Notes: generated by a model from the letters alone, not told the origin. A stretch of 62,968 nucleotides of DNA, filler included, from Folioceros fuciformis (GCA_049999805.1; 9 parts of 9 records of this genome joined end to end with filler, not necessarily neighbours in it); one strand, 5' to 3'. Counted from the first letter of the whole stretch, positions 1 through 44,460 are shown. Made by a program: numbers and translations.

Positions 1-257
1 AGGCTCTATCAGCCTCAGGGCGCACTCCCTGACCAGCTGGGGTGCTGCATGGTTCCACTTCTGGGTCATAAAGCTCAGACCCCGCTCTGCCACCAACTTC
101 CCTGCCCTGACCCTCCAGTGCTCCATATTGGGCCACAAGAGTAGGTCAATTCGGGGGACAGGAGGCCCCCCCTCCTGTCCAGAGGCTGCTGCTCCAAGGA
201 TCAGTTCAGGCCGCGCCCTCATCTTGCCTGTCCTCCTCCTCTCACACCTTGCGCCAT
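1..257 (-). pseudogene. Degenerate accessory ORF downstream of the family-A PPT (apparently inside the LTR)
   Basis: Translates ..LWPNMEHWRVRAGKLVAERGLSFMTQKWNHAAPQLVRECA.., matching 43930-44454. Both copies share the GAGAGATGGCGC start context. TATA-like TATAAAAACCCT at ~361-372. Confidence 0.7.
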
Positions 258-2322
258 CTCTCCCATCGTCCTAGCGCTTTCCCCTCTTTCAGCCGCTTCA
301 CGCTTCAAGTTACTCCCGCTTCCCGTACTTTCGGATGCTGGACAGAGCTCCCCTTTCTCTAGGGTTTTTATACCCTGCCTACTTTCTCCCCTTACGCTCG
401 TCGGGCTACCTCCAGTCGTCCCTCCGGTAACGGTTGCCGGCTACCATTGCCCTGTCACCTCGGGCCCTTACTTTTGCCTACCTTAATGTTCTCAATGACC
501 CGAGGGCCAAGGAGGCACTCGCTGCTTCCCCCTCCTTGTCCCGATCTCCCGTACTCCCCAAACCCCGAAGCCCAAGGTGGACTTTGGGGGTAAACACCCC
601 AATCTTACTCGCTTACTAAGCCGATTCGCCTATCCCTTCACAAAAGAATCACAACCTGCTTATTCCGTCAAGGACCGAACTATATCCTCCAGTTCAGAAG
701 ACCCCGCCACTCTGATCAGCAAGGACGGAGGAACCCCCACAAAATTCGGGTAAGGATGTTACAGGCGGCTGGGCCGAGGAGTCAGCACTGCGCGTGGAGG
801 AAGAACGACAACCCGAGAAGGGGACGGGCCAGAAGGCAGAAGAAGGAGGAAAGGATTTGCGGCTGGATGAAATGAGGAAATTGGGATTTCCTCCGGATGT
901 GCGTTAGGAGGTGGCTGATATGATCCAAGAGGAGTTGAATCAATCACTGGAGGATGCGGCAACGAAAGGGGGGCCAATGGGGGTTCCGAAAGTTTTTTTT
1001 CGTTCACATACTCCCCTTCTCATTTGTTGGCGCCCTCGCCAACCTACACATAATACCTCTTCACCCGCCACCCATTCACCCTGGTTGGCAGCAGCTGTCC
1101 GTCCATCTGTTGCAGCTGAATGGAGCCATTGTCAAAAACCTCAGCGACCCGGTATGGTCCCATCCACCTCAGATGCAATTTCCCTGGAAAGTGCATATAC
1201 CTGCTGTCATACAGCAGAGCCAGATCACCAGGTACTACCCATTCCTGTTGCTTCATCCTGCGGTCATGCCATTCCTTCCTCCTAGTCTGCATCTCCTGCA
1301 TCGTTTCCAACGCTTTTTCCATGTCTTCAGTGTGTTTAATGAAACTAACGAGGAGCTCCAGCTGACTTTCCTCCACTGTTATCCGCTTCCTGTTTTGAAC
1401 ACGTAGGGTTAACACTTCAAACTCCACAGGCATCACTGGGTGATGGCCATAAGTAAGATAGTAAGGAGTTTTCTGGGTGGTGACCCTCTCTGCAATCCGG
1501 TATGCCCACAGCGCCGAATGGAGCTTGAGATCCCAATCATAAGAATACTCCACTGTCACCTTGTTCAGTATTCGACACAAAAGACCATTCGCTTTCTCTG
1601 TCAGCCCATTCGCCTTCAGATTGTAGAGGGTAGTTTGCCTGTGCTGCACATTGAAATGGTCCGCCAGATGGGTGCTTACCTCATTGACAAAGTGGGTACC
1701 CCGGTCACTTACTAGCTCCAGCGGACAGCCATACCGAGCAATCACTTGCTCGAACAGAAATTTCGCGACCACATGCGCAGTGTCCACTTGCAGGGGCTGC
1801 GCTTCCACCATCCTTGTGCAGTAATCCGTCGCAACTAGAATGTATTGATTCTGCCGAACTCAAGTCTTTGGTTGGATCGGTCCCACAAAATCGATTCCCC
1901 ACTTCTCGAAGGGTGCCAAAGCCAGAATCGGCACCAACGGCCATTGCGTCGACGGGGTAGGCTTCCCCACCCGCTGGCAGGCATCACATTTTTTCACGTA
2001 CTGTGCTGTATCTTTGTACATCGTGGGCCACCAGTATCCTGCCTCCAGGATCTTCCTGCAAGTAATATGTGCTGCGAAATGGCCACCTGCCTCCCCGTCG
2101 TGCAGGCCCCTCAGCACTTGCTCAATCCTCTCTCTTGTTATCCATAGACGTTGGCGTCCGTCTGGCCCGATTTGATACAGCTCCCCTCCGCTGCGAGTGA
2201 AAGGTCGGGTGTAGTGCACCCAAGCTTGCCCCCGCTGCCTCGATACATCGCTAGGAATGACCCCCGACTCTAGGAATTCCGCTACTTCCAAATAGGTGGG
2301 CCGAACAATCTTGATCCTCCCC
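1..2322 (-). mobile_element. Non-chromovirus Ty3/Gypsy 3' part (family A): integrase, PPT and 3' LTR running off the window
   Basis: Integrase HHCC zinc finger (H..GGH...CDAC), core WGIDFVGP / LVSDRGTHF and GPY/F tail WMGPY..RVNGWRVKRYY in ORFs 1860-2399 and 1044-1811, with a frameshift between them. PPT GAGAAGGGGAGTA at 1009-1021; LTR starts TGTGAACG at 1008. Confidence 0.9.
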
Positions 2323-2323
2323 T

Positions 2324-2537
2324 TAATAGGAATATAAGATGCTGAATAGCAGTCAAGACAACTTGACATCTTGTGCGCGTAGTGAGAGATAGATATCAAA
2401 AGAATCCAGCATGATAATTAATGAGAGAATAATTAATAATGAAAAGGTAAAGGTATTTATAGCCAAGCCCTAAACTAATTAGGTCATCTATTCATGCATA
2501 CTCCTAGGTTACCCATAACAACGGGTTATTTTCAACA
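2324..2537 (-). repeat. 3' LTR (~214 bp) of the Copia element inserted into the Gypsy pol
   Basis: On the minus strand PPT-like TATGTGGGAG is followed by TGTTGAAAA. The segment is AT-rich and ends TATTA (decayed TATCA) where Gypsy pol resumes. Confidence 0.7.
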
Positions 2538-7332: not shown

Positions 7333-7432
7333 NNNNNNNNNNNNNNNNNNNNNNNNNNNNNNNNNNNNNNNNNNNNTTAATTAATTAANNNNNNNNNNNN
7401 NNNNNNNNNNNNNNNNNNNNNNNNNNNNNNNN
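7333..7432. other. Artificial contig spacer
   Basis: N44-TTAATTAATTAA-N44, with stops in all frames. Confidence 0.98.
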
Positions 7433-8313
7433 GCCGCGTCCTCCAATAGCCCATGTCAAGTGTGCAGCTGGATGAGGGAGGGGGGGGGGGGGGGTGTTCC
7501 GGGTCTTCTGTTCTGTAGATTACAACAATCAGGCCGTCTGTTCAGGCCTTCCTGTTGTATGCAGCCTGTGAGCACAACGCACAGCATATAATCAGACTAT
7601 TGACGAAAATTTCCATCCTCGCTGAATGCTGAACCAAGAGGTCCGAGGTGGTCTTCCTCTCTTTGGCTTGCTCCAGGCTATTACGATTTTGATGCCTTCA
7701 CAGCTGGGTAGCCCCCTGGGTTCCGGACAACGGCATCCAGCTCGTCTGATAGATCGACCCACATAGGAGATCATGGTTACAAATACGGTGGAAGGCTTTT
7801 ATCAATAACGACAGCCGACAGCAACTTACCAAAGATCATGTTTGCAGGACGCGTGAAGAAGGGTGTGGCCAGCCTGATTCACACCAACCCCAGTTCCAGG
7901 CAGCTGTCATCACTGCGAGGAGCAGCACAACGCCGAACATCTGCTCTCGGCTCTGGTGAGCAGTTGCGTGCCGGCATGCTTGGCGTCTAGTCCTTCGTGG
8001 AATCTCACTTCCAGCTGTCTTGCAGTGGAGCCGATTGCAAGGCAGGCATTGTGGGACAAGGATCTGACAGTGTCCCAGAAGTGGTGGGACAAGAAGGTGA
8101 GGTTTTGGGAAACTTGAAAACGTTGTGAATTTGCAGTCCATTTGCTGCCATGGCCGGCAGCAGGTCTTGGTGGAACTCTCAAATCGTTTGGGTCTGCATG
8201 GCAGAGGAGGTACCTGGAGGAGGTGGAACTACATGGGAAGCTAGGACCCGCAGCACAGACTGGTGGTGGGTGCACAACATCCGACCAGATAGCATGGGAC
8301 AGTAGAGCTGACT

Positions 8314-10830
8314 GTGAGAGGTCCGAACTGTGCTCCGCAATTGCACCTCGATCTGTCTTTAGAGTTGGATTATCACTCGATTGAGCCGTTCTGGGAATGC
8401 AGGAGTTTTGAAGTGAGAACGTGGGAGAGGCTTTGCCAACATGGGCAGCTGGGGGAGGCCGTCGAGGCCTTGGACCTTCTGGTGCAGGAGAGGTCGTACG
8501 TCCCTCCAGCACCTTTCTACCATGTTCTCAAGAAGTGTATTGCACAGAAAGATGTCGTTGTGGGCAGGCGTGCTCATGCCCTTGCTCTCAAGAGTGGTCA
8601 CGAGTTCGACACATTTCTGGCCAACCACATCATCCGCATGTATGCTTCTCAAGGCAGGTTGCAGGAAGCAGTTCAGGTCTTTACCAAGTTGTCTGCACCA
8701 GACTGCTTTGTGTGGGCATCCATCATTTTGGCACATGCTGAATACGGACAACCTACCCAGGCTATCAGATTCTACGAACAGATGCGTTTGTCCAGGGTGA
8801 AAGCAGACAACTACGTATTCGTGGCAGTCCTTAAAGCCTGTGGAGCTGCCGCAGATCTGGCATGTGGCAAGCAGGTGCATGCTGCTGTTTTGGAGAGTAG
8901 GGTTGAGCCCAATATTTTCGTCGGCAATGCCTTGTTGGACATGTATGCAAAGTGTGGGAGTTTGCAAGACGCACGACTGGTGTTTGATGGTCTGTCGACC
9001 AAAGATGTGGTGTCATGGACTTCCATGATTGCAGGGTATGCTCAGCATGGGCGTGGTCAAGAAGCCCTTACTCTTTATGCCAATATGCAGCAGGAGGGAG
9101 CAGTGGTGCCCAATGATGTCACTTTTGTCTGCCTTCTGAAAGCGTGTGCCTCGGTTGGAGCATTGCATGATGGCAAGGAGCTTCACCGTCAAATACAGCA
9201 AAGGGGATTTGCGACTGATGTGGCCGTAAGCAACTGCTTGGTGGACATGTATGCCAAATGTGGGAGCATAGGGGATGCTCGCAAGGTATTTGACAGCATG
9301 CCCAAGAGGGATTTTCTCAGCTGGAATTCTATGATTGCAGGGTATGTTCAGCATGGGCTAGGCCGAGAAGCACTGGCGCTGTATGGCTGCATGCAGCAAG
9401 CCCTTGCTGATAACGTCACGTTTGTTTGCTTGCTGAAGTCTTGTGCGATTGTTAGAGATTTGCGGGCAGGCAGAGAGCTTCATGGCCAGATTCAAGAAAG
9501 GGGTTTGGAAGCTGATACGCTCATTGGCAACAGCCTGGTGGACATGTATGCGAAATGTGGGAGTTTAGAGGATGCTCGGAGATTGTTCGACAGGCTGCCA
9601 ATACGAAACGTCGTGACATGGAATGCCATGATCACAGGCTATGCCCAGCAAGGGGTTGGTGAGGAAGCTTTGTTGCTTTATGCAAGTATGCAACAGGAGG
9701 CAATGACTGCCGCCAGTAATGTAACCTTCGTTTCCCTTCTGAAAGCCTGTGCTAGCACGGGTGCTTTGAATCAAGGGAAGCAGCTGCACTTGGACATCCG
9801 GGAACGAGGCCTGGAATTGGATGTCGTTGTTGGTAGCAGCCTTGTTGATATGTATGGAAAATGCGGGAGTGTGGCAGAGGCTCGCAAAGTGTTTGACAGG
9901 CTGCCAACCAAGAACGTGGTGACCTGGAATGCGCTGCTGAACGGGTACAGCCAGCACAACCACAGCCACATGGCAATGCTGTGTTTCAAAGAGATGCAAC
10001 GGTATGGTGTTGAACCTGATGAAACCACTTTCATCTGCCTGCTAGCAGCATGCAGCCACCAGGGCATGGTGAAGGAGGGACGGCAGTTTTTTGACAGTAT
10101 GGCGGAAGACTATGGCCTTGCACCCACCATTCATCACTACAATTGTATGGTCGACCTCATGGCCAGGTCAGGCCACCTGGATGAGGCAGAAAGGTTTCTG
10201 CTAACCATGCCGTTGGAGCAGGATGCCGTGGGATGGACATCCTTGCTGACCGCCTGCAAGGGCCACGGAGATGTAGAGCGTGGAAGGCGGTGCTTTGATC
10301 AGCTCATTCAGCTGGAACCGCAGAATGCAGCTGGGTACATGCTTCTAGCCAACACCTACGCGGAAGCTGGTAGGTGGAGTGATGTGGATATGATAGAACG
10401 CCTGAGAGTGTCTGCAGGCGCTTGCAAAAAACCTGCCATTGCCTGGATTGAGGTGAGGAGCAAAGTTCATTCTTTCGTAGTGGGGGAAGAAAGGGGTGAC
10501 CTTTACGGCAAGCTCAAGAGTGTGAACCTGCAGTTTGTACAGGAGGGAGGTCACGTACCCCACACGGAGTTGGTCCTGAGGCCAGTGTCAGAGACTGAGA
10601 AGCAAGATGCCTTGTGTGGCCATGCTGAGAAGCTGGCATTGGCCTATGGACTCCTTAACACTCCCGATGGCTCACCCTTGGTGGTCACCAAGAATTTACG
10701 CATGTGCAATGACTGCCACAGCGGCACCAAGATTATGTCCAGGATTGAGAAGCGTGAGATTATTGTCAGAGATGCACACCATGTGCACCACTTTGTGAAT
10801 GGTTTCTGCTCCTGTGGAGATGGACCCTGA
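8314..10830 (+). CDS. PLS-class PPR protein with E1/E2 and a complete DYW:KP-type deaminase domain (candidate U-to-C RNA editing factor); start codon uncertain
   Basis: About 17 P/L/S motifs ending P2-L2-S2-E1-E2. KKPAIAWIE replaces PGxSWIE, HAEKLA replaces HSEKLA, zinc ligands MCNDCH, C-terminus CSCGDGP. First in-frame ATG is at 8638 and there is an in-frame TAG at 8290. Confidence 0.92.
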   Translation: MRGPNCAPQLHLDLSLELDYHSIEPFWECRSFEVRTWERLCQHGQLGEAVEALDLLVQERSYVPPAPFYHVLKKCIAQKDVVVGRRAHALALKSGHEFDTFLANHIIRMYASQGRLQEAVQVFTKLSAPDCFVWASIILAHAEYGQPTQAIRFYEQMRLSRVKADNYVFVAVLKACGAAADLACGKQVHAAVLESRVEPNIFVGNALLDMYAKCGSLQDARLVFDGLSTKDVVSWTSMIAGYAQHGRGQEALTLYANMQQEGAVVPNDVTFVCLLKACASVGALHDGKELHRQIQQRGFATDVAVSNCLVDMYAKCGSIGDARKVFDSMPKRDFLSWNSMIAGYVQHGLGREALALYGCMQQALADNVTFVCLLKSCAIVRDLRAGRELHGQIQERGLEADTLIGNSLVDMYAKCGSLEDARRLFDRLPIRNVVTWNAMITGYAQQGVGEEALLLYASMQQEAMTAASNVTFVSLLKACASTGALNQGKQLHLDIRERGLELDVVVGSSLVDMYGKCGSVAEARKVFDRLPTKNVVTWNALLNGYSQHNHSHMAMLCFKEMQRYGVEPDETTFICLLAACSHQGMVKEGRQFFDSMAEDYGLAPTIHHYNCMVDLMARSGHLDEAERFLLTMPLEQDAVGWTSLLTACKGHGDVERGRRCFDQLIQLEPQNAAGYMLLANTYAEAGRWSDVDMIERLRVSAGACKKPAIAWIEVRSKVHSFVVGEERGDLYGKLKSVNLQFVQEGGHVPHTELVLRPVSETEKQDALCGHAEKLALAYGLLNTPDGSPLVVTKNLRMCNDCHSGTKIMSRIEKREIIVRDAHHVHHFVNGFCSCGDGP

Positions 10831-20129: not shown

Positions 20130-20690
20130 TTCGTCAAGTTAATGGTAGGGTAGACTAGTCTAGAATAATAGTGTGCTATAAACTATTGCTTTGGTTGTCG
20201 TGTCTTAGTGGTCAACCTATAGAGAGAGGAAAGGGACTAGAGCTAGGAGTCCTCTATAAGAAGCTGTGAGGCTCTAGACCCCACTTGTCACTTCACGATC
20301 TCTCTCGAGCTGTCCCTGCTTGGATGCAATAGTGTGTGCTGGCTCTAGACCCCACTTGTCACTTCACGATCTCTCTCGAGCTGTCCTTGCTGGGATGCAA
20401 TAGTGTGTGCTGGCTGTGCATGTTGTACAGCGTCTAGTAAAGCTTTGAGAAGTAGTGGTCAGTATTAAGGGCTAGGTTCTTTTAATTCTTGATTGTGCTC
20501 TCTATGTCATGCCCCATGATCTGTCATTCTTATTTCCTCGCAAGACTCGAGTGAGTGCCAACCATGCTTGCATGGTGTCTGGTAGGATCGTGGGTGGTAA
20601 CATGCTCTTCTTTGGGACTCTAGTGACTCTTGCCAAGTAGGGGAGTCAATAGGGGAGTGTAGAAGGTAGTGGTGTTGTTGCCAATCTGGC
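20130..20690 (+). repeat. Internal fragment of a family-B Gypsy LTR, including a 71-bp tandem duplication (20270-20411)
   Basis: Colinear with ~58300-58765 (CTATAAG TATA, CAGCGTCTAGTAAAGCTTTGAGAAGT, GCTTGCATGGTGTCTGGTAGGATCGTGG). Boundaries approximate. Confidence 0.75.
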
Positions 20691-21400
20691 CTAGTGCCCT
20701 GTTTCACCTTCCACAGGAAATGGAAAAACGCGACAGAAAAGGAGGTAGTCATGGGACTACACCTCAAGGATAGCACAAGCTTGGTGAAGAGTTTCCATTT
20801 GGGCTCCTCCAATCTCTCCGTCTTCCAACCATGCCGGCTCTTAGCATCTTCCCCACCCTTCATCATTGAGTGAGCTTCCCTTGCCACAGCCCTCCGGCCA
20901 TCCTGACACTTCTCCAAGAAGGTGGCTCCACCTTCCTCATTTGCTGGTAGCCCATAAATCTTCCATATGTGTTGGACTGTCCAACCCTTGGGATCTGTCC
21001 TAATGTCGCGAACCTCCAAGGCGGACAGATCTTCCTCATATATTTGCATGTGTCGGTGGCACTCCCCTACCATCTTGGGGTAGGCATAGGACCAACGCCA
21101 TCCATAGAGCCATTCCATCCTAATGTTAGGATTCGTAGCATAGGGACGGAAGTCCCACATATCCTTGGGTGACACCTGTCCTACAAGGCACAAAAATTGT
21201 CTTCTCCTACTTGGGGGCCTTCTTTGGCACTGGTGGGATGGGAGTGGAATCCACCTGTACCTCTGTCTCTCCCAGGCTCTTCCTTGTCTTCATGTTTCAC
21301 TTGTTGGGCCCCAAGTCCTGTCATTCCCGACAACACTTCCATTCGGCAAAGAGAAAACCATCTCAGCCTTGGCGACTCCTGCAACTGGGATCCTACTCAT
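20690..21400 (-). pseudogene. Degenerate copy of the Gypsy accessory ORF family
   Basis: WRWSYAYPKMVGEC..IRTDPKGWTVQHIWKIYGLPANEEGG..HGW..GTRPDW aligns with the 43.9 kb and 52 kb copies. Confidence 0.65.
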
Positions 21401-21407
21401 GACTCAC

Positions 21408-21540
21408 CGCAGAGGAAAAAAACTTTTGGGACTCCCATTTTGAGAGACAGAATGTGCAAGTTGTGATTTTTTTTTGTGAAAATACGAGTGAATCGGCTTA
21501 GCTTGTGAATAAGACTTGGGTATTTATTGTTAAGGGATAG
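21408..21540 (+). repeat. 5' fragment of a family-A Gypsy LTR
   Basis: CGCAGAGGAAAAAAA.. and TTGTG..GAATCGGCTTAG match 43303-43410 and the reverse complement of ~590-660. Confidence 0.6.
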
Positions 21541-22565
21541 TGTTGATAATATCTAGTCAATTAAAGGCACATATATAGTGGTTTATAGGGGTACTTATAA
21601 TAAATAATTATTAAGTACCCGTTCGTTAGGGTTGCGACTTATAACGAACAGTTATGTCGTTTAAGTTAGAACCATAATATCTTTTCAGCATATGTTTTAA
21701 GCTCTTCTTGATACACAATGTAATCTAACATTATTATTCTTGATAATAGACAAGTTTATTTGTTATGGTATCAGAGCCGGGTGTACAGAATGCATCCTAG
21801 TAAATGCATAAACATATGCATTGATTTATAGAATTATATGTTTTCTTGATTCTAAATATCAAGAAAATAAAAATGAAAGTCAAGAAGCATTTCTTGCTCT
21901 AAAGATTATATAAAAAATCAATAAAGAGGATGAAACCTAGCAAATTAAGGTAGTAGTCCCAGTGTACTTAGTGTACTTCTGCCAAATTGCTTCTTGAGCA
22001 ATTCGATGGAAATATACTAGGACAACTGCCTGCTTTGCAGGCAGTCTACAAAATATTTAAAGCAATAGAATGCAATAATCATTTTCTAATGCATTATGTC
22101 AAAATATTAACTGACCAAATGAATGGCCAGCAATCGAATCAAGCTAAATCAGTGGCTACCGCAATCTGGAGCGCGATTCCCGCAATGGCCGAATTGTCGC
22201 AGGATACACATGTCCAAAGGCAAGCAAGCCAGATCAACAATTCCACAGTACCTTCATCAGAAGATCCATGACTTGATAGCTCTCAATGAAGGCCAATCGA
22301 TCCTGGCTGTTGAGTTAAGGAAGTGCTTCAATACATTGATTGCGGTTATTTACCCTAATGAGCGACATTTGGCTATTACTTCTTTGCCCGAAGCTCATGC
22401 TCAATGTGCCTTCAATTTGAGAGCAAATCTTAAAGGCCCTCCTACTGCGCATGTTGAACAACACAATGCTGTAAGTAATTTGGCCAAAAGAATTGAAGCA
22501 CATTAGAGAAGCATGAATAAAAGATGTAACAATACTGGCTAGAGAATTGCCGCTGTTGGATCTGA
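21541..22565 (+). mobile_element. 5' end of an LTR element: LTR 21541-21765, tRNAiMet PBS 21766-21777, degenerate extra ORF; cut by a family-B LTR
   Basis: TGTTGA..TGTTA followed by TGGTATCAGAGC. ORF remnants CQNIN*PNEWP and NLAKRIEAH are homologous to 59.3-59.7 kb. Confidence 0.75.
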
Positions 22566-25915: not shown

Positions 25916-26775
25916 AGTACCTGGCACAAGATGGCGATGTACTTGAGCAAGATCTAGCTTATGTTGAGGAGTATCCATCGATGAATGGGTCTTTCCAGTT
26001 GAGGGTATTGGATGGTGATTTGTTGCCAACTAGGGTCAATGGTTGGCAAGTCAAGAAGTACTATCAACCATGAGAGGGTTAGTTGTTTGCGAGGACGCAA
26101 ACAGCTGAGAAGGGGGGCATGTGAACCTCCAAAGTTTGGGGTAGTAGTTTGTTTTGGTTGAAAAAGGGTTAATAGTGGTATGGTTTGGTTTTCTTTTTCT
26201 ACTTCTTTTTCCTAAATTTTCTTTATTTTTTTTGTTATTTTTCCTATTTCTCTTTGTGCTAATTAGGTTAATTGACTAGGAAATAGTTGGTTTGGTTATT
26301 AAAGTGGGTACAGGTCTGGTTCCAGACCTGGGAAAGTTTAGGTCCGGTACTGGGCCATAGGGTTATGAAAGCCCAATGTGCTTAGACTAATGTAATTAGT
26401 CTAAGATTAGTGTCTAATTAAGTATCATCAGTTTAGGAAGCTTCTTGCATAGCTTCCTGTGAGCTTCTTGTGAAGCTTCCTTGGGAGCTTTTCTAGAGGG
26501 TATAAATACCCTCTTGAGCTCCCTTTGCAAGAGGGATGTGAGAGACACTGTGAGACCTCTTTCTCCTCTCCTCCTCTCTTCCTCTCCTCTTCTCTTTCAT
26601 CATGTGGCTCCCTTTCCGATCCTTCAAGGATCACAAGGTGTAATGACCAGGGTGAAGGGGCTTGCCCCTAGCTCTTGATTGTAAAGGATGTGTCTTTCTC
26701 TCGACCTGTCCACTCTTGTTCCCTGTTTGGACAAGTGCTGTAGGCCGGCCATGTTTCATGGCGTCTGGTAAGGTT
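25916..26775 (+). mobile_element. Family-B Gypsy 3' end: integrase tail, hairpin, PPT 26107-26119, LTR from 26120 (chimeric)
   Basis: LLPTRVNGWQVKKYYQP*, then GAGAAGGGGGGCA and TGTGAACCTCC. The LTR matches the reverse complement of 40311-40553. Confidence 0.85.
26358..26626 (+). repeat. Copia-type LTR segment embedded in the family-B Gypsy LTR
   Basis: Highly similar to 47690-47926, including TATAAATACCC; ends CCGATCCTTCA. Confidence 0.7.
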
Positions 26776-26875
26776 NNNNNNNNNNNNNNNNNNNNNNNNN
26801 NNNNNNNNNNNNNNNNNNNTTAATTAATTAANNNNNNNNNNNNNNNNNNNNNNNNNNNNNNNNNNNNNNNNNNNN
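26776..26875. other. Artificial contig spacer
   Basis: N44-TTAATTAATTAA-N44. Confidence 0.98.
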
Positions 26876-32519: not shown

Positions 32520-32619
32520 NNNNNNNNNNNNNNNNNNNNNNNNNNNNNNNNNNNNNNNNNNNNTTAATTAATTAANNNNNNNNNNNNNNNNNNNNNNNNN
32601 NNNNNNNNNNNNNNNNNNN
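32520..32619. other. Artificial contig spacer
   Basis: N44-TTAATTAATTAA-N44. Confidence 0.98.
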
Positions 32620-33764: not shown

Positions 33765-36700
33765 ATGGCTGGTGGGTTAACCGGTCGGCTGGAAAGGGCT
33801 TCGGCTCGTGTGGTGTCATGGAAGCAAGGGTTGGCGCTCCACCATGTCGGGGGCTGCAGCGAAATTGCAAGAAAGCCAACGCGTTCTGGAGGATGTCTGG
33901 TCTCAGACACCCGCCGGCGTTGCAGCCAGGGCCGTGGCCAGGAGCACTTGTCGCCAAGATTATCTCGAGACTCCAAGATTTGGTGGGATGAGAGGTAACA
34001 GGATCGAGGCGTCCCTTTGGCTGATGTGTGACAGGGGAGGTGATGGATATGTTTGAACTGGTCGCCAGACCGGATGCCTTCATGTCGCATGCCTTTCTGC
34101 GCATGCTAAGTGCGGGAATGGCAAACAGGCGATAGAACTCTAATCATCGGATGCGGAGGTCTGGTGTGAAGCCGGATGGCTATGTGTTTGTGGTAGCACT
34201 TCAGGCTTGTGCGAAGGGATTAGACTTGAAAGCTGGTCAGCAGGTGCATGCTGATGTGTTGGCCTGTAGGTTGGAGAATGATTTGTTTGTGGGTAACGCC
34301 CTGGTGAACATGTATGCTAAATGTGGCAGCTTGGAAGAGGGGCAAAGAGTATTTGATGGACTTGGTTGCAAAGATAGAGTGACGTGGAATGCTATGATAG
34401 CAGGATATTCCCAGCATGGCATGGGCCAGGAAGCCATTCGTCTGTACAGTGCCATGGAAGACGAATGCGATGCTGTTGCCGATGTGGTGACATTTGTGTC
34501 CCTCCTGCAGGCGTGTGCCAGTTTGGGCGCAACAGCATTGGAGAAGGGAAGGCATCTTCATGAGAAAGTCAGGGAACATGGACTAAAAGGCAATGTGTTT
34601 GTAGCCAACAGTTTGGTGAACATGTATGCAAAGTGTGGTAGCTTGAAGGATGCGCAAAGAGTGTTCGACGGGCTTCATTGCAAAGATGTGGTGACGTGGA
34701 ATGCTATGATAGCAGGATACGCCCAGCAGGGGAAGGGGCAGGAAGCCCTTGGTATCTACAGTGCTATGGAAGAAAATGGTGTGGCGGTACCTGATTGCAT
34801 GTGCAAGCATTGGCGCACTGGCGTTGGAGAAGGGGAAGGACCTTCATAGGCAGATTGTAGAACGTGGACAACAATCTGATGTGGTTGTAGCCCGCAGCTT
34901 GGTAAACATGTATGCCAAGTGTGGGGACTTGGAACAGGCTGAAAGAGTATTTGACGGACTAGCTCAAAGAAATGAGGTGACGTGGACTGCCATGATAGCA
35001 GGTTACTCCCAGCAGGGCATGGGACAGAAGGCCCTTAGTCTCTACAGTGCTATGTTAGAAGAGGGTATGAGTATGGGTGTCTCCAATTCCGTGACAACTG
35101 TGTGCCTCTTGCAGGCATGCGCTAGTATTGGCACCTCATTCTTGGAAAAGGGAATGCAACTTCATAGACTGGCTGTAGAACATGGACATCAAACTGATCA
35201 GTTTGTAGCCTGCAGCTTGGTAAACATGTATGCAAAAAAGTATGGCAGCTTGCATAATGCTCAGAGAGTGTTTGATGGACTCGGGCCAAAAAAATGAGGT
35301 GACGTGGACTTCTATGGTAGCAGGATATTCTCAGCAGGGCATGGGCCAGGAAGCCCTGCGTCTCTACAGTGCCATGCAAGAAGAAGGCCTGTCTTACCCC
35401 ACTGCCGTAACATTCGTGTGTCCTGCAGGCATGTGCAAGTGTGGGCACTCAGGCGTTGGAAAAGGGGAAGGAGCTTCACCTGCTTATTAAAGAAAGGACA
35501 TCAAGCTGATGTGGTTGTAGCAAACAGTTTGGTGAACATGTATGCAAAGTGTAGCATCTTTGAACATGCACAAAGAGTGTTTGATGGACTTGCACAGGAG
35601 AATGTCGTGACTTGGACTGCCCTGATAGCAGGATATTCCCAGCAGGGCCTGGGTCGCAAAGCTCTTGGTCTCTACAGCGTTATGCAAGAGGAAGGCGTGG
35701 CTGTACCTGATTCTGTGACATTCGTGTGCCTCCTGCAGGCGTGTGCAGTTGTGGGCCCTCCAGCACTAGATAAAGGGAAGCATCTCCATGCACAAATCCA
35801 AGGAGGAGGGCATGAAGCTGACATGTTTGTAGCAAACAGTTTGGTTAACATGTATGCAAAGTGTGGCAACTTGGAGTGTGCGCAACATGTGTTTGATGAT
35901 CTTGTTGAAAAAAACGTGGTGACGTGGAATGCCTTTATAGCAGGATACTCTCAGCATGACATGGGCCATGAAGCCCTTCGTATTCATAGTGGGATGGAAG
36001 ACGAAGGCATTGCTGTACCTGATTCTGTGACTTTTGTATGTCTCCTACAGGCTTGTGCCAGTGTGGGTTCCCAGGCTTTAGAGAAAGGGAGGCAGCTTCA
36101 TGCACAGATTAAAAAACAAGGTCATCAAGCTGACGAGTTTGTAGCTACCAGTTTGATGAACATGTACTCCAAATGTGGAAGCCTGAAGGATGCTAGGACT
36201 GTGTTTGATGGACTCAGTCATAAGAAGGTGATGACATGGAATGCCATAATAGCAGGATATTCCCAGCAGGGTAGGGGGCAGGAATCCCTCCGTCTCTACA
36301 GTGCTATGCAAGTGGAAGGCATATGTGAACCCAACTCTGTGACATTTGTCTGCCTCCTGCAGGCATGCGGCAATATGGCGGCTTTGAATATGGGAAGGCA
36401 GCTACATACACAGATAGTGGAACAAGGAATTCATATTGATGCGTTTGTTGCAGGCAGTTTGATTAACCTGTTTGGGAAGTCCGGGAGCACAGTTGATGCG
36501 CTGCAGGTGTTTGATGTGCTGCCCAAACGAGACATTTTTGTCTGGAATGCGCTGATTGGTGGCTACAGCTGTGCAGGAGCCAGTGAAGTAGTGTTTGACC
36601 TGCTAGTGGAGAAGGGCCGGGAGTACTTCGAGGCTATGAAGACACATTATGGCATCATTCCCATGGAGGATCACGACACATGCATGGTGGATCTCCTGGG

Positions 36701-37042
36701 CCGCACAGGAGAACTAAATGAGGCTCTAGATTTAGTATGGACGATGCCTGTCGTACCTAATATGGCAATTTGGCACACTCTGTTGGGAGCAACTTGGAGG
36801 TAGGACGCCATGCTTTCAATGAAGCGGTAAGGCTAGACAAGAACGATGCTGCAGCATATGTGCTGATGTCGAACATATACACCGATGCTCACATGTGGGA
36901 GGAAGCACAGAAGATGCATGCTAGGAGACTGAAACGCAGGATATCCAAGCAGCCTGGTCAGAGCTGGTGGACAGACATGGATGGATTAGTGCACAGCTTT
37001 TTGGTGGGGATCCCCAGACTGCAGCAAGGCCGAATAAGGTAA
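33765..37042 (+). pseudogene. Multiply frameshifted PLS-E PPR, WW-type, paralogue of 28176-30600
   Basis: Frames 34151, 34749, 35230, 35304 and 36770; partial deletions in P2/L2 and E1; ends KQPGQSWWTD..VHSFLVG. 5' limit approximate. Confidence 0.88.
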
Positions 37043-37531: not shown

Positions 37532-37551
37532 CGTGATACGCTCACGAGAGT

Positions 37552-37911: not shown

Positions 37912-39342
37912 TCAAAGAAACAAATTTGGCATAGGTTGGAAACACACCCAATCATATTGTGCAATAGTGGTGGGAAGCTTTCGCCAGAAATGCTCAAGCA
38001 TATCGTAGGCAATAGCATAGTTCTTGTATACATCCTCGAAATGCACTCTCAAAAAGAAAACCACCAAGTCTCTAACAACTTGAACATGCGTAATTTCTAA
38101 ACTAAGTGATGATGTCTCCAAAGATGAAAGCATGTGAGATGGTAAGTTCTCCACAATTTTCATCCACCCACGCCTAGCATTATCTAGCATCCAAATACCA
38201 TCGCAGCACAACAAGAGCCTTCCTTGGTATTCTACCAATGAAGGTATTGTAGTTGATCTCAAAATACTTTGATTTCCTATAAAGTTATGAGGAAGTGGTA
38301 GACTCCATAAAAGCCATGGGTCCCCACTTTCCATGTTAAGTTGTGCCACACTACGGGGTCTCAAATCAACCACTGTATACAACCCTCCATTGTACGATAA
38401 AAATGAATTGAAAAATTTTGTGAATATTTCTTGGTCAATACGAAATGTCTTCCACATATCACTAATACTATTATAAATGGCATAAGAATCGTAAGGAGAT
38501 GAAGGTCCAGACCCAAGTGGCCTAGCATATCTCACAAAGACCTTGAAGCTGGGAATCCTTGTTGTTCCACTATTCGTTTCCATCAATAGGCTAAAATCAC
38601 TATAGGAGCCTCGAAGCTGAAGTAAAGGCAAAAGTTTAAAGCACCTGTTCAAGGGATTCACAATGCAGACATGCATTCCTCGAGCTACTTGATACAATAA
38701 GCACATAAACCCAGAATGTGAACATATTCTTGTAGTAATGGATGATATGTTATCACAAAACATATCTGGCAAAAAAGACAAATCCACTTTCAGAGCCCTG
38801 TGGACAATTGGATGCCTCATTCTTGAACTGTGATAATTCATTTGGTCATCACACGTTTTGTACCCAAACAAAAGGGTGCACAACTTAAGTGCTGTTGTAT
38901 GTGACTCCAAGGCTCGGAGAAAGCTGTAATGGGGAAATCTTGCATCTGTGACGACGGTATGCCAATCTTTGCAGACCGTTTGGTAGCGAGTTTGCAATTT
39001 AATAGGTAATCGTAGCAATACCTCTTCTACTATGTTATAGCACAATTTAGAATAATTTTGAATCAAATGACTTGATGTCATACTAGTAGCTGGAGGGCTT
39101 GAACTATTTTCACACCAGTCGTCATCAATAGTTAACAAATAAATCATGACATAAATATCATACTTATTGCATTGGACAGAAGGATTCGCCTTTATTAAGT
39201 GAGAAGTAGAATTTGTCTCGTTAGAGAGAGCATCTTCTTGGTATGAAGAAATTGTATCCGACTCATCACTACTAGCCGATCCATCAGTTTCCCCTTGACG
39301 TTCATCATCAAAGTCTAACATTCTATTGTCCATGTCATCCAT
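37912..39342 (-). CDS. F-box protein with a beta-rich (FBA/kelch-like) C-terminal region
   Basis: 476-aa intronless ORF; F-box IVEEVLLRLPIK..VCKDW; HSGFMCL, CIVNPLNR..LLP, IYNSISDMW. Confidence 0.82.
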   Translation of the reverse strand: MDDMDNRMLDFDDERQGETDGSASSDESDTISSYQEDALSNETNSTSHLIKANPSVQCNKYDIYVMIYLLTIDDDWCENSSSPPATSMTSSHLIQNYSKLCYNIVEEVLLRLPIKLQTRYQTVCKDWHTVVTDARFPHYSFLRALESHTTALKLCTLLFGYKTCDDQMNYHSSRMRHPIVHRALKVDLSFLPDMFCDNISSITTRICSHSGFMCLLYQVARGMHVCIVNPLNRCFKLLPLLQLRGSYSDFSLLMETNSGTTRIPSFKVFVRYARPLGSGPSSPYDSYAIYNSISDMWKTFRIDQEIFTKFFNSFLSYNGGLYTVVDLRPRSVAQLNMESGDPWLLWSLPLPHNFIGNQSILRSTTIPSLVEYQGRLLLCCDGIWMLDNARRGWMKIVENLPSHMLSSLETSSLSLEITHVQVVRDLVVFFLRVHFEDVYKNYAIAYDMLEHFWRKLPTTIAQYDWVCFQPMPNLFL

Positions 39343-40178
39343 CTTTTACCCCAATACAAAAGATACGCACAATGCAAGTAATAACATAGAGTACTTAGAT
39401 ATTCAAGATGTTCAACAACATGCTAAACACTACAAGCCTAGAAGAGAGCCCTATGTATAGACTAGGCAGACCATATTAATATTATAGTAGGCTATAGAAC
39501 TAATCTAAGAAAACCATATTAATATAGTAGTAAAATATAGACCTTAAATGTCTATAATGGTAAGACCTCTTTATATACACTAGGAAGACCATACTAATAC
39601 AATACTAGAACATAGAGCTCAAATGTCCATAATAGCCGATGTCCTTTATATAGACTTAGAAGATTATACTACTAATATAAAAATATTATACTATTAATAT
39701 AAGATTAATATATATATATTATACTACTACTATAATAATAGAATGTAGATCTCAAATACCTATAGGAGTAAATGTTGTTATAAATGATCATGTGCATAAT
39801 GACCACTTAGCCTAAGTTTAGAACGTAATATTTCTATCATATGTATGGATTATTTGGGAGACCTATTCTTGTGGTATTATTCCTATCATATGTGTCCATT
39901 ATTAGGGATTATGATTGTGATAAGTTTTTGTACAATTCTTGGTAAGTTTTGAAAAGTCCCCGACTATGGTTTCATGGATCAAGAATGCTAAGTACTTAGT
40001 ACCTGCTCTTGTTGTTGTTCTAAAAACTAATTTGGCAATGCTCCTTGTAAAGCAATGGATATGCATTGTTTATTTATTTATTTATCATTAGGCGTATGCA
40101 GCCATGAGGCTATGACGCCGGAACGTGAATCAAAAACATGATTGAATGGACACTTTGGGAAAGCGCAAAAGAAAGAGG

Positions 40179-40278
40179 NNNNNNNNNNNNNNNNNNNNNN
40201 NNNNNNNNNNNNNNNNNNNNNNTTAATTAATTAANNNNNNNNNNNNNNNNNNNNNNNNNNNNNNNNNNNNNNNNNNNN
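40179..40278. other. Artificial contig spacer
   Basis: N44-TTAATTAATTAA-N44. Confidence 0.98.
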
Positions 40279-40553
40279 ATATCTTTAATTAATATTAAAC
40301 TAATCACCCAACCCTATGGCCTGGTACCGAACCTAAACCTTCCCAGCTCTGGGACCAAACCTATACCCCCTCTTATAACCAAACCCACTATTTCCTGGTC
40401 AATTAACCCAATTAGCACAAAGAAAAATAGGAAAAATGACCAGAAAATAAAGGAAAATTAGGAAAAATAAGTTGAAACAGAAAACCAAACCATACCACTA
40501 TTAACCCTTTTTCAACCAAGACAAACTACTACCCCAAACTTTGGAGGTTCACA
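40279..40553 (-). repeat. Family-B Gypsy LTR 5' end inserted into Copia RT
   Basis: Starts TGTGAACCTCCAAAGTTTGGGG and is colinear with 26120-26364. Confidence 0.85.
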
Positions 40554-41902: not shown

Positions 41903-44460
41903 TCGCGACTGTAGACGGAGGAGGTTGTGTAGGATCAAGAAGATGAGTTTCCCAATGAAACTTTGTTCGCGGCAGAGATAGAGGATGAAGCGGCCGTGCC
42001 TAACCAAAGACAATCTGAGAATGAGGGCGCGGCAGGAAATGAGAAGGGGAGGGTCGGCTTCATCAGACCCACCTACCAGGAAGTGTCTGAATTCTTGGAA
42101 ACAGGAGTCATTCCCGCTGACTTGTCAAGGCAGCAGGTGCAGATGTTTGTGCACTACGCAAGGCCATTGACTCGCAATGGGAGAGAGCTGTACCGAATGA
42201 GACCAGATGGGCGAGAGAGGCTCTGGGTGATAGGGGAGAAGGTTGAGCGGCCTGCAAGAAGATGTTGGAAACTGGCTACTGGTGGCCGACAATGTACAAG
42301 GCCATAGTGGAGTTCGTCAAGAATATGACACGTGCCAGAGAGTGGGCAAACCAACAGCGATGATGCAGTGGCCCTTAATCCCCATTCTACTAGCCTTAGC
42401 TCCATTTGAGAAATGGGGAATCGACTTCGTGGGACCTATCCAGCTAAAGACTAGGGTTAGGCAGAATCAATACATTCTGGTTGCAACGGATTACTGCACA
42501 AGGATGGTGGATACAGCCCAGGTGGATACAGCTCCGATGGTAGCTAAATTTTTGTTTGAGCAGGTGATTGTCCGTTACGGGTGCCTCTTGGAATTGGTCA
42601 GTGATCAGGGGACCCATTTTGTCAAAGAAGTTATCACTCACTTGGTGGAACACTTCAATGTGCAACACCGACGAACGACTCCCTACAATCCGAAGGCATT
42701 AATGGATTGACGAAGAAAGCGAATGGTCTCATGTGCCGAATCCTGAACAAGCTAATAGGGGAGTACGCCTACGACTATGATCTCAAATTATACTGGGCGC
42801 TATGGGCGTACAGGACAGCAGAGAGGATTACAACGCAGAGGACGCCCTACTACCTCACCTATGGGCATCATCCAGTGATGCCAGTGGAGTTTGAAGTTCC
42901 AACCCTGCGGGTTCATAGGGAGAAGCGAATGTCAGTAGAGGAAAGCCAACTGGAGCGCCTAGTTAGTTTCGTAAGGCACACTGAAAATAGGGAGCAGGCC
43001 TTGGAGGCTATGCAGGAGATGCAGGCTAAGCGGAAGGAATGGCACGATTGCAAGCTGAAGAAGCAAGAGTGGGTGGTACCTGGGGACTTGGCCTTACTGT
43101 ACGATAACAGGTACATGCATTTCCACGGGAAGCTGCATCTAAGGTGGATGGGGCCATACCAGTTAGTTGAAGTTTTTGCCAAAGGCTCCATACAGTTGCC
43201 GCAGTTGGATAGCCACCTCCTGCCAACCAGAGTCAATGGTTGGCGAGTGAAGAAATACTATGTCTAGGTTGGCGAAGACGCCAACAAATGAGAACGGGAG
43301 TATGCAGAGGAAAAAAACCCTAAAAGTATTCAGAAACCTCTTTCTCAGTGGCATGAGGCGTGAACTTTGTTTTTTTTGTGGGAAAATGTGAGGAAACCGG
43401 CTTAGTAAGGACTAGTGTGAGGATATTTGTACATAAAGTCTCCTTGGTCTATGGCGTTTTGGACAACCGGGGTAGCAGGGCTAGGTGTCGAGAATGAGCA
43501 GGTTGGTCCTTGGCCTTTGGTGGGCAGGGGGTATTGGGAAGTCTATATATGCACCCCCCCCCCCCTTGAAAATAAAGAAATAAGACAGGGACCTCGGGGT
43601 AGGTAGTTGTGGACTTAGGCTAGAAAAGGGGAATGTTGTGACTCAGCGACGGTGGTGGAAGCCGAACCACCGTCACGGAGAACCAAACTGCGGTAGTGCA
43701 ACTAACGGTAGTGGAGCCCCGACGATCTAATAGGGATAAAACCCTAAGGGTAAAATGTTAAGTGCCATTTTTGAACAGGGGCGCAATCGGGGTGAGCGAC
43801 CAAGGTGGACGAGCGGCGGGTGGAGCGCAACAGCGGGGCAGCTCAGGCAAGAGCGAAGACAACCGGCCAGGGACTCGGATAGCAGCAGCGGCCAAACTGC
43901 GGTGGACAGCTCCCCATGCCTAAGGAGAGATGGCGCGAGAAGAGGAAACTGCGCAACTCAAATCGGGAGAGGACACCCCGGTGCAGACCTCGGCACCCAA
44001 AGTCGAGATGGCCTTTTGGCCGAACATGAAGCACTGGCAAGCAAGGGCTGGGGGAATGGTGGAGGAGCTGGATCTAGGCTTCATGACCCAGCGTTGGAAC
44101 CATGCAGGTCCAGGCTTGGTGCAGGAGTGCGCCCAGCGATTGCGGAGCCCGTGCAGGGGAGAGGGGATCTGAGGAAACCCACAGGAGTGAAACCTGGACC
44201 TAGTAAGGAGAGTGTATGGGCGCAGCTTGGAAGAGGAAGGAGGACTTGTCCTTGAGACGCCGAAGAAAAGGAGCACGGCGGCCGCGGCGCAGGCGCTGTT
44301 CAAGCTAGGGACTGTGAGGGAAGCGAACGAGTGGCTGGCCAGGGATCTAGCGACTGCCCAGCTGATGGGGTTGGCGAGGTGGCTCCTCTACTTCCTGCAG
44401 ATCAGGAAGCAGGACTACATCTTTGACCAGTTGCTGTTAGAAATCAAGCTCTAACTGAAT
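41903..44460 (+). mobile_element. Family-A Gypsy 3' part: integrase (ends 43267), hairpin, PPT, LTR from 43303
   Basis: Closely similar to the reverse complement of 1044-2322 (RPTY.EV.EFLE.GVIP, PFEKWGIDFVGP, RVNGWRVKKYYV); PPT GAGAACGGGAGTA. Confidence 0.9.
43930..44454 (+). pseudogene. Accessory ORF downstream of the family-A PPT, cut by a Copia insertion
   Basis: One frame with two internal stops: FWPNMKHWQARAG..QRWNHAGPGLVQECA..VYGRSLEEEGGL..NEWLARDL. Confidence 0.7.

Follow-up and report, generated by a model that had tools for sequence, protein, structure and literature searches.

The question raised by this locus is where a gene that lies behind both the integrase and the PPT of a plant retrotransposon belongs, and in particular whether, as an earlier note on this DNA had claimed, it is part of the LTR. 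The window (the whole stretch of DNA that was analysed, 62,968 nt, nine contigs joined by N44-TTAATTAATTAA-N44 linkers) carries two Ty3/gypsy copies of one family, family A, and in both of these the order is integrase (IN) stop, hairpin, PPT, TG, a spacer of 0.63–0.79 kb, a TATA/telo-box and a homologous extra ORF (eORF). The features discussed are collected in Table 1.

Table 1. Positions of the family A copies and of related features in the window
Feature	Position	Strand	Details
Copy 1 (A1) integrase remnant	1047..2417	-	Pfam rve E 6e-8, Integrase_H2C2 E 2e-15
Copy 1 IN stop, hairpin and PPT	1009..1046	-	stop 1046-1044; hairpin 1043-1026 (7-bp stem); PPT 1025-1011
Copy 1 post-PPT region, putative 5' part of LTR	223..1008	-	TG at 1008; starts TGTGAACG
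Copy 1 post-PPT motifs		-	block CGGCTTAGTAAG 623-612; TATA/telo-box TATAAAAACCCTAG 372-359; GGAGAGATGGCGC 263-251
Copy 1 eORF, first 74 codons	1..222	-	ATG 222-220; runs off window
Copy 2 (A2) RNase H tail and integrase	41905..43267	+	Pfam rve E 1e-10; tblastn
Copy 2 hairpin and PPT	43268..43302	+	hairpin 43268-43285; PPT 43286-43300
Copy 2 post-PPT region	43303..43929	+	TG at 43303; starts TGCAGAGG
Copy 2 post-PPT motifs		+	block CGGCTTAGTAAG 43398-43409; high-copy segment ~43506-43650; TATA/telo-box GATAAAACCCTAAGG 43735-43749
Copy 2 eORF, 168 codons	43930..44434	+	ATG 43930; TGA at 44170-44172 and 44188-44190
Nested Copia 5' LTR and PBS-like TAGTATCAGAGC	44435..44699	+	LTR 44435-44687, TG..CA; outside the family A element
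Family B IN tail and LTR-B start	25984..26356	+	stop 26071-26073, hairpin, PPT, TGTGAACC at 26120
Second LTR-B copy	40279..40553	-	89.6% identity over 241 nt
Family C, decayed and distantly related homolog of almost the full eORF	49900..52425	-	tblastn 25% identity over 153 aa, E 5e-12
Locus D, remnant of an A2-like IN tail with LTR start CGCAGAGGAAAAAAAC	21349..21777	+	LTR start at 21408; block 2; broken hairpin
P0002, open 260-codon frame, weakly eORF-like	20510..21289	-	tblastn E 2e-4 at 21097-20852; antisense to locus D

Two diverged copies carry the ORF behind the integrase

The IN of family A, in which the two copies are 76% identical at the nucleotide level, has an H2C2 zinc-binding domain and an rve core as the last pol domain, as in Ty3/gypsy elements, and no chromodomain was found after it, the frame stopping right after ..NGWRVKRYYV, as in non-chromoviruses. 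The window holds no gag or RT of this lineage. Both copies are decayed and lack their 5' ends: copy 1 has an in-frame stop in IN (1860–1862) and loses its upstream part to a Copia 3' LTR at about 2345, and copy 2 has frameshifts in IN, an IN stop at 43265–43267 and a 5' truncation at about 41905. The PPT of copy 1 (AAATGAGAAGGGGAG) is an exact match to the PPT motif, and the PPT blocks of the two copies are identical at 35 of 37 positions. The hairpins fold at −11.4 kcal/mol (z −3.25, copy 1) and −11.9 kcal/mol (z −2.66, copy 2), and the hairpin/PPT of copy 2 coincides with a peak of contig depth (500 for the bin and 913 per site, where single-copy sequence has about 10). The distance from TG to ORF is 786 bp in A1 and 627 bp in A2 (IN stop to ORF, 0.66–0.82 kb), and the spacers have 42 common 9-mers where 6.0 are expected (maximum 16 in 200 shuffles), these being confined to a few co-linear blocks with the remaining spacer poorly alignable. 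Directly before the ORF the conserved leader block amounts to the ATG context only.

The proposal of the earlier note that the ORF belongs to the element and not to flanking DNA is borne out, since two diverged copies have it behind IN, the spacer is bridged to the ORF in no fewer than three other contigs from the same organism (X1 records 4 and 5; X2 records 11 and 13), in the Marchantia gene model P0063 the C-terminal part of an IN of the same lineage is fused to the eORF, and in a sister family an LTR begins directly behind the PPT. We therefore regard it as very probable that the eORF is a real, element-borne extra ORF behind IN and PPT. The order from integrase to ORF that had been described stands in both copies, but the GAGAG-ATG does not serve in copy 1, where it is out of frame and reaches a stop 12 codons on; the frame homologous to copy 2 opens at the ATG listed in Table 1. 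Nor is the copy 2 ORF open over 43930–44454 as had been thought: codons 81 and 87 are TGA stops in this frame, and its end lies in Copia DNA. The Copia LTR that cuts it at 44434/44435 is of very high copy number (loose contig ends at 44435 and 44687; depth bins climbing from about 100 ahead of the LTR to 21149 inside), with a PBS-like 12-mer (one mismatch) beginning at 44688 and Copia gag downstream, and the copy 2 ORF is therefore truncated, the TAA at 44452–44454 being Copia DNA.

The ORF is coding and encodes part of a long coiled-coil protein

The eORF is a real coding sequence that has evolved under purifying selection. The two copies are 55.6% identical over 54 aa (E 2e-18) and 72% identical over 122 nt, and over 54 codons dN/dS is 0.20, not near 1 (dS is saturated), the corresponding value for IN being 0.064. 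What the window contains is the N-terminal part of a protein of about 640–690 aa, in which a helical domain of about 230 aa at the N terminus is followed by a disordered Pro/Glu-rich linker and a C-terminal coiled coil. At E ≤ 0.001 there are 79 related proteins, and Marchantia ‘hypothetical proteins’ make up 68 of them. The match to the distant homolog of family C runs from 52425 to 51967; the homolog as a whole has the N-domain, a P-rich linker and a coiled coil, with a block-2-like motif upstream (52915–52890).

No Pfam match, including to the plant mobile domain (PF10536), was found for the window ORFs or for 30 family members, and none of the 30 matched ATHILA ORF-1 (PF03078) or Transposase_32 (PF20167) at E ≤ 10. 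Alignment of the eORF family with P0125 by hhalign gave a probability of 0.4. For the Marchantia N-domain the nearest entries in the ESM Atlas are ATHILA and Transposase_32 clusters (feature score 0.84, TM 0.59–0.62), which are leads only, resting on low-confidence models (AF2 pLDDT 50). Identity of the eORF as gag was considered and rejected because the Riccia polyprotein P0090 (gag-PR-RT-RH-IN; 55% aa identity with copy 1 IN), which ends like the IN of the window, has a separate gag of its own plus CCHC. The sequence is best explained as the 5' portion of an additional, lineage-specific ORF that a bryophyte Ty3/gypsy family carries. Its product is probably an accessory factor and might, speculatively, be an oligomerizing RNA- or chromatin-binding protein acting via the coiled coil.

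A sister family suggests that the DNA after the PPT is LTR

In family B, which a Copia LTR interrupts at about 26357, the hairpin shows a compensatory G-C to U-A change and is thus retained. The second copy of LTR-B starts at the same TG (40553) and directly adjoins a Copia RT (RVT_2 E 4e-15, ending at 40555) that is cut at profile position 67/244, and this abutment on an interrupted gene at the same TG makes it a true LTR start. The region after the PPT of A1 has its first 7 nt, TGTGAAC, in common with LTR-B. As the TG is a proven LTR start in the sister family, and as PPT-primed plus-strand synthesis sets the left end of U3, the DNA after the TG of family A is most likely LTR sequence, with the promoter-like motif and the ORF as parts of it.

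No PBS lies between TG and ORF, as the earlier note had stated, for the two types tried: iMet-type PBSs with ≤1 mismatch match twice in the window, neither time in a spacer (if ≤3 mismatches are allowed the matches number 59, where 58 are expected), and no Asp-type PBS is present on the element strand of either spacer. Since the full ORF is about 2 kb, the LTR would need to be about 2.8 kb or more. This is possible, as non-chromovirus LTRs reach about 5 kb (PMC6317226), although no such LTR is known to have been reported with an ORF. An LTR 3' end, a second LTR, a TSD and an ORF-bearing solo LTR were not seen, and no inverted copy of the LTR start was found downstream. On balance we give the location of the family A ORF inside the LTR a probability of about 0.4.

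Alternative positions of the ORF

The ORF may instead lie between pol and the true 3' LTR as an internal eORF-3'F of the Athila/SIRE kind, in which case the hairpin and PPT behind IN would be one of several PPTs, comparable to a central PPT, the TATA/telo-box would be an internal promoter for a subgenomic mRNA, and the true 3' PPT and LTR would lie downstream of the ~2-kb ORF, beyond the window. Extra ORFs of plant LTR elements lie most often at this position, according to the accessible parts of PMC7264820 and PMC6317226; here we consider it unlikely. An exact second PPT 15-mer inside pol of copy 2 (42037–42051) implies that the elements have more than one PPT and that the one behind IN need not be the 3' PPT, but no TG follows this internal copy, and in family B the hairpin-PPT-TG leads into an LTR start whose first nucleotides A1 shares. 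Copy numbers speak for an internal position, because a location in the LTR predicts an excess of at least 2:1 and neither contig depth nor the Marchantia clusters show one. The least conserved IN bins have a depth of about 45–47 and the spacer bins about 39–52 (spacer:IN about 1:1, single copy about 10), and the ORF-core bins (91–130) are not above the C-terminal half of IN (148–192), with depths of spacer, IN and ORF all about 1:1. The 80% likeness cut-off and the faster divergence of noncoding DNA are confounding factors in this comparison. In Marchantia all 68 eORF clusters at 90% identity (68/68) are single-member and adjacent gene models are just 46–90% identical, so that no LTR-like twin pairs are seen. 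The fusion of IN to eORF in P0063 also suits an internal ORF, as does the finding of no eORF-gag fusion among the family proteins (0/85), which counts against the LTR. Against an internal position, the C-terminal tail of the eORF precedes IN in P0088 (whose first 50 aa match this tail in 8/85 family proteins, IN then following), and the nearest named families (Transposase_32 and ATHILA ORF-1, leads only) lie 5' of gag where checked, Transposase_32 being N-terminal to gag in P0125.

It is also improbable, in our judgement, that the LTR is shorter than about 0.6–0.8 kb and ends just before the ORF, its PBS being unrecognized or decayed, so that the ORF is an Ogre-like first gene of the next unit (eORF-gag-pol) and the order IN-PPT-LTR-eORF comes from tandem units with one common LTR. 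Ogre has such 5' eORFs (accessible part of PMC6317226), tandem LTR-retrotransposon arrays exist, with gypsy elements more prone to them (accessible part of PMC11899658), and the arrangement in P0125 and a Marchantia locus with the order eORF – IN – eORF agree with it. Tandem arrays would give pol, PPT, LTR and the next element in succession, as at locus D, which resembles A2 (local alignment score 63 against 21.5 ± 3.3 for shuffles), has an internal-LTR-internal look and carries a perfect iMet PBS (TGGTATCAGAGC, 21766–21777) 358 bp after the LTR start with no ORF between, and so counts against an ORF within the LTR. The distance in locus D from the TATA-like motif to the LTR end (about 165 nt) would also place the LTR end of family A beside GGAGAGATGGCGC, which contains TGG. 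However, no 12-nt tRNA match is found there and the copies differ after TGGCGC, so the block suits a start-codon context better than a PBS. At locus D likeness to family A is lost at about 21525, and this together with the AT-rich turn from there across the PBS would fit a nested foreign element equally well; no second copy of the tail occurs in the window, and a fold test gave no hairpin. Shared LTRs would moreover require tandems in both informative family A copies (2/2) and at the Marchantia loci, whereas in plants tandems that share LTRs are a minority structure (accessible part of PMC11899658), and the family A order is found in every informative copy with no PBS seen; presence of tandems in every copy is thus unlikely, which supports the LTR reading.

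An assembly path switch at a repeat (for example the high-copy segment 43506–43650) that linked an IN-PPT piece with an unrelated repeat carrying the ORF, or a separate multi-copy gene or other transposon adjoining IN fragments by coincidence, is very improbable: the window consists of short contigs, no exact X1 or X2 contig among the matches listed crosses 43250–43644, the segment 43498–43685 has a depth of 280–415 and loose ends of its own, and the eORF-like copies of family C and P0002 have no recognizable IN upstream, but like order and spacing recur in two diverged copies, in further contigs and in the independently assembled Marchantia models, X3 contigs bridge 43235–43551 and 43598–44224, and the co-linear blocks are common to both spacers.

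Comparison with other extra genes

Retroviruses have ORFs in or overlapping the LTR, such as MMTV sag in U3 and the overlapping nef of HIV. If the family A ORF lies in the LTR it would resemble these, being copied along with the LTR, from which it would also be expressed, but the host element is a plant retrotransposon, the ORF extends for about 2 kb behind the TATA motif, and membership of the LTR is putative. No plant case of an LTR-embedded ORF was present among the literature matches listed. Ogre ORF1 (eORF-5'F, plant mobile domain), Athila ORF-1 and Transposase_32 are likewise lineage-specific extra genes of plant Ty3/gypsy elements (non-chromovirus OTA) found in most copies; they lie between PBS and gag, whereas the family A ORF follows the PPT, and it also differs from them in having no Pfam match, in its bryophyte hosts and in its long C-terminal coiled coil. 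The sense 3' eORFs (env-like) of Athila, Bagy-2 and SIRE are likewise on the pol strand downstream of integrase and possibly have their own message, but are upstream of the 3' PPT, whereas family A has the hairpin-PPT-TG between IN and ORF. The antisense 3' ORFs of Retand, Grande and RIRE2 (TRP28; PMC11963269) are matched in position by P0002, which is likewise antisense and just upstream of the hairpin/PPT/LTR start of locus D; the family A ORF, in contrast, reads in the sense direction and follows the PPT, and no Transposase_28 match was found.

Implications of a possible gene within the LTR

If the ORF does lie inside the LTR, reverse transcription would copy it into both LTRs, and it may have originated as a 3' eORF that is now downstream of a working PPT or as a cassette inserted into U3. 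The wider proposal, that the LTR of a bryophyte Ty3/gypsy lineage, one that occurs at least in liverworts as well, contains a gene of about 2 kb with its own TATA/telo-box promoter, is slightly more tentative again. Were it true, the 3' PPT would lie upstream of the gene and each full element would hold two copies of it, every solo LTR would be a putative stand-alone expression unit, and the family would provide a plant counterpart of the retroviral LTR genes and a new route by which an accessory gene of a retrotransposon may outlive its element.

An extra ORF follows the integrase gene in both family-A copies

The two copies of the Ty3/gypsy family A, A1 and A2, both show the order described in the earlier note, integrase (IN) stop codon, hairpin, polypurine tract (PPT), TG, TATA-like motif and extra ORF (eORF). 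In both copies the part upstream of the RNase H/IN junction is missing, A1 being cut by a Copia 3′ LTR at ~2345 and A2 adjoining a Copia pol fragment at ~41905.

Coordinates of features after the integrase genes, and of the linkers between contigs
Feature	Position	Strand	Remark
A1 IN stop	1046-1044	minus	
A1 hairpin	1043-1026	minus	7-bp stem; -11.4 kcal/mol, z -3.25
A1 PPT	1025-1011	minus	
A1 TG after PPT	1008	minus	
A1 TATAAAAACCCTAG	372-359	minus	TATA/telo-box
A1 GGAGAGATGGCGC	263-251	minus	GAGAG-ATG block
A2 IN stop	43265-43267	plus	
A2 hairpin	43268-43285	plus	z -2.66
A2 PPT	43286-43300	plus	
A2 TG after PPT	43303	plus	
A2 GATAAAACCCTAAGG	43735-43749	plus	TATA/telo-box
A2 eORF ATG	43930	plus	
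Family B IN tail	25984-26073	plus	third IN tail with the same hairpin-PPT module
Eight identical linkers (44 N, TTAATTAATTAA, 44 N)	7333-7432, 23362-23461, 26776-26875, 32520-32619, 40179-40278, 46769-46868, 57650-57749, 60261-60360		

That a homologous ORF occurs in two independent insertions, as had been proposed, agrees with the divergence of the copies: A1 and A2 are 76.2% identical over 1073 nt of IN and 72.1% identical over 122 nt of the ORF core, and their ORF proteins share 55.6% of residues over 54 aa (E 2e-18). The comparison of substitution rates suggested at that time gave a dN/dS of 0.20 for the ORF core, not near 1 (54 codons, with dS ~1.7 and saturated), against 0.064 for IN (188 codons). 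The ORF is a genuine coding sequence that was once under selection and is common to two independent, diverged insertions. Its proposed ends fared less well. The GAGAG-ATG block is kept in both copies, but in A1 the frame starting there ends after 12 codons, and the homologous A1 frame opens at ATG 222 and runs out of the window. The A2 ORF had been drawn as 43930-44454, a span that is interrupted by TGA at codons 81 and 87 and whose 3′ end is not the ORF's own. Public contigs from this organism include many that start at 44435 and many that end at 44687, contig depth jumps from ~100 before 44435 to 21149 in the bin 44438-44531 (single copy ~10), and a PBS-like 12-mer lies at 44688 with Copia gag beyond it; the A2 ORF has therefore been broken at 44434/44435 by insertion of a very abundant Copia element, to which the TAA at 44452 belongs. 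The LTR of this element (44435-44687) is 253 bp long, and its contig depth of ~21000, compared with ~10 for single copy, implies something like a thousand copies or more. A sequencing run guessed to be RNA matches only a 62-nt IN piece and this Copia LTR in the stretch compared.

The DNA between PPT and ORF is barely alignable between A1 and A2. The two spacers have 42 9-mers in common against 6.0 expected (maximum 16 in 200 shuffles), and these form co-linear blocks: the hairpin/PPT, CGGCTTAGTAAG, AAAACCCTA and GGAGAGATGGCGC. A segment of ~145 bp in the A2 spacer (~43506-43650, beside a C12 run; 43498-43685) has a depth of 280-415 and its own loose ends; the 43498-43685 segment is a separate high-copy module or small insertion. 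The GCAACCGTTACC hairpin motif found upstream of the TATA in A1 has a GGTGG..CCACC version in A2, and is related to a AACGGTTGC motif (MYB-core-like) that is carried by four ~25-bp tandem units at 52850-52760 (minus), upstream of the distant family-C eORF.

A conserved hairpin and PPT

The hairpin and PPT (43268-43302, 1009-1043 and 26079-26117) directly follow the IN stop and are far better conserved than IN, with a contig depth of ~500-913 vs 45-190 for IN and ~10 for single copy. In the sister family B the stem is kept through a compensatory double change from G-C to U-A (-19.7 kcal/mol, z -4.97). The hairpin and PPT are probably a cis element for plus-strand priming; the hairpin as PBS was ruled out, family B being without TGG yet retaining the stem. 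The 15-mer of the PPT, AAATGAGAAGGGGAG, has an exact second copy with similar flanks (42023-42051) in pol at 42037-42051, at the RNase H/IN junction, and this copy is a candidate central PPT; at ≤3 mismatches the 15-mer has 10 matches in the window against 2.4 expected. The truncation of A1 falls right at this internal motif (about 2345-2337). A pattern search for the PPT/hairpin in metagenome, viral and genome contigs gave 0 matches.

The ORF defines a protein family

Pfam gave no match for the window ORF. Searching 1.84 billion representatives with a profile built from four window sequences gave only 7 weak matches (E ~1e-4). Once these 7 were added, the profile matched 79 proteins, of which 68 are 'hypothetical proteins' of Marchantia polymorpha without a Pfam domain. 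The longest family members, P0079 (638 aa) and P0068 (690 aa), consist of a ~230-aa N-terminal domain, which the window ORF aligns with, then a linker rich in Pro/Glu and, at the C-terminus, a coiled coil, the last suggesting oligomerisation as a putative function. The window itself contains a decayed homolog of nearly full length (52425-49900, family C) in which all three parts recur. No further copies of this locus were found by tblastx, and an IN-tail/hairpin-like stretch upstream of it was not significant (score 33 vs 26.8 +/- 3.0 for shuffles). No longer protein was found for the protein P0001 among 2360 candidates; of the eORF alignments, A5 was too divergent as a search query and A6 had no matches in viral or genome contigs.

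The eORF as gag was ruled out, as the Riccia polyprotein P0090, which is 55% identical to the window IN and ends in ..NGWRVKRYYS, carries its own Retrotrans_gag followed by CCHC, protease, RT, RNase H and IN. The nearest ESM Atlas clusters to the Marchantia N-domain were ATHILA ORF-1 and Transposase_32 (feature score 0.84, TM ~0.6), and in the protein P0125 Transposase_32 lies N-terminal to gag. This likeness is treated as a set of leads only, because the predicted models are poor (ESM Atlas pLDDT 0.53; AF2 pLDDT 49.9), the corresponding HMMs match 0 of 30 eORF family members and hhalign against P0125 was not significant (probability 0.4). The N-domain may be a distant relative of plant transposon protein domains.

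The eORF is tied to one integrase lineage

In the Marchantia gene model P0063 the C-terminal part of an IN of the window lineage runs straight into the eORF domain. A second model, P0088 (AXG93_3459s1010), starts with 50 aa that match the C-tail of the eORF in 8 of 85 family proteins and goes on into IN; eORF models (s1000, s1030 and s1040) neighbour it. Additional contigs from the window organism connect 43496/43537-43719/43859 with 44040/44057-44210/44439 at ~85% likeness. Together these fusions and contigs show that the eORF is part of this Ty3/gypsy lineage in two distant plants, in line with the earlier proposal that the ORF belongs to the element. We regard it as highly probable that it is the element's own extra ORF, lying behind IN and the conserved hairpin-PPT-TG module, with a TATA/telo-box motif ahead of it. 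What is newly defined is a conserved, un-annotated eORF family without a Pfam model that accompanies a single integrase lineage in two distant plants. The match of the P0088 read-through to the N-part of P0015 (E ~1e-4) lies in basic low-complexity sequence and was too weak to use. Searches with the IN alignments (A3, A7) found no relatives in viral contigs, and in metagenomes an IN alignment found one locus only (L001, 27% identity).

Position of the eORF relative to the LTR

A location of the eORF inside the LTR is the leading reading, with a probability of roughly 0.4. The post-PPT sequence of family B, TGTGAACC... from 26120, recurs at 40553 with 89.6% identity over 241 nt, and this copy starts at the identical TG and directly abuts a Copia RT that is interrupted at position 67 of 244 of its profile. 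This is a clean nested-insertion boundary, and the TG after the PPT is therefore the 5′ end of the LTR in family B. The post-PPT sequence of A1 begins TGTGAAC, as in family B. This homology, together with the PPT marking where U3 begins on its left, means that the family-A spacer should be LTR. No PBS had been noticed between TG and ORF, and this holds for two PBS types: neither family-A spacer has the iMet 12-mer at ≤1 mismatch, and an Asp-type motif has no match on their element strand. At ≤1 mismatch the whole window contains the iMet 12-mer at just two places, 21766 and 44688; allowing ≤3 mismatches gives 59 matches vs 58 expected. As A1 and A2 differ after TGGCGC, the GGAGAGATGGCGC block is better explained as a start-codon context than as a PBS.

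Against an LTR location, no LTR 3′ end, second LTR or eORF-bearing solo LTR was seen, nor any inverted copy of the LTR start downstream. Judged by contig depth, copy number is about equal for the IN bins of lowest conservation (45-47), for the spacer (39-52) and for the N-terminal end of the ORF (21-30), and depth in the ORF core (91-130) is not above that of the IN C-half (148-192); an LTR location predicts at least twofold, although depths of this kind, taken from contig k-mers with an 80% cut-off, make the test weak. At 90% identity the Marchantia eORF clusters are all single-member (68/68), neighbouring Marchantia eORF models are 46-90% identical, and eORF-gag fusions number 0 among 85 family proteins.

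An internal 3′ eORF in an element with multiple PPTs is rather unlikely; the exact second PPT copy in pol, which also counts against an LTR location, makes a further PPT downstream of the eORF conceivable. Marginally less likely again is a 5′ eORF in LTR-sharing units. Tandem arrays of that kind exist but, according to extracts of one account, are a minority structure (PMC11899658). In the gene model P0003 an eORF C-terminal coiled coil is joined to an eORF N-terminus and in P0007 the same 63 residues occur twice, letter for letter, which suggests head-to-tail eORF copies and bears on the choice between LTR and tandem arrangement. Also against an LTR location stands an A2-like remnant, locus D (21349-21777), whose alignment to A2 covers the IN tail, the LTR start and a conserved spacer block, block 2 (score 63 vs 21.5 +/- 3.3 for shuffles); beyond this likeness it is AT-rich and then has a perfect iMet PBS 358 bp after the LTR start. 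Locus D is either a short LTR that lacks the ORF and leads into an internal region, which would be tandem-like, or a nested foreign element; its tail has no similarity to the Copia LTR at 44435. Set beside the same order of features in A1 and A2, artefact or coincidence is very improbable; the rest of the probability is not assigned to any reading. A further locus, 'E' (58136-57991), looked PPT/LTR-like by eye and was not significant.

Sequence context

Neighbourhood across the linkers between the nine window contigs is not to be assumed, and evidence from beyond the window comes from protein databases, one set of public contigs and papers. The window comes from a plant with many PPR/E/DYW genes plus Copia and Ty3/gypsy remains. 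PPR genes that lack introns and carry E, E+ and DYW motifs form a cluster (8293-10827, 11160-14231, 17479-19622, 28475-30775 and 34136-36800) with 64-74% mutual identity and internal repeats. At 37915-39345 (minus) an open frame of 477 codons, lying in an AT-rich stretch, has a weak F-box match (E 5e-4). In contigs from run X3, C>T accounts for 187 of 328 changed places and is almost the sole difference from the window; this pattern suggests that the run is a bisulfite-type library made from the same sample.

Implications

Extra ORFs are common in plant Ty3/gypsy elements and are not known to lie inside an LTR. Those of OTA-type gypsy elements are well known, and the main texts of three such accounts, as excerpted, place none inside an LTR (PMC6317226, PMC7264820, PMC11963269). 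A literature search for LTR-borne ORFs returned mostly MMTV, with no plant case among the matches listed, which were in extract form. Liverworts are absent from a 2019 survey, the main text of which has 'Marchantia' 0 times. If the LTR location is false, the ORF would be an eORF of the ordinary 3′ or 5′ kind, in a bryophyte lineage not described so far. If it is true, solo LTRs would be promoter-plus-gene units scattered in bryophyte genomes, which would bear on gene annotation, on the conflict between transposable elements and their hosts and on the acquisition of accessory genes.
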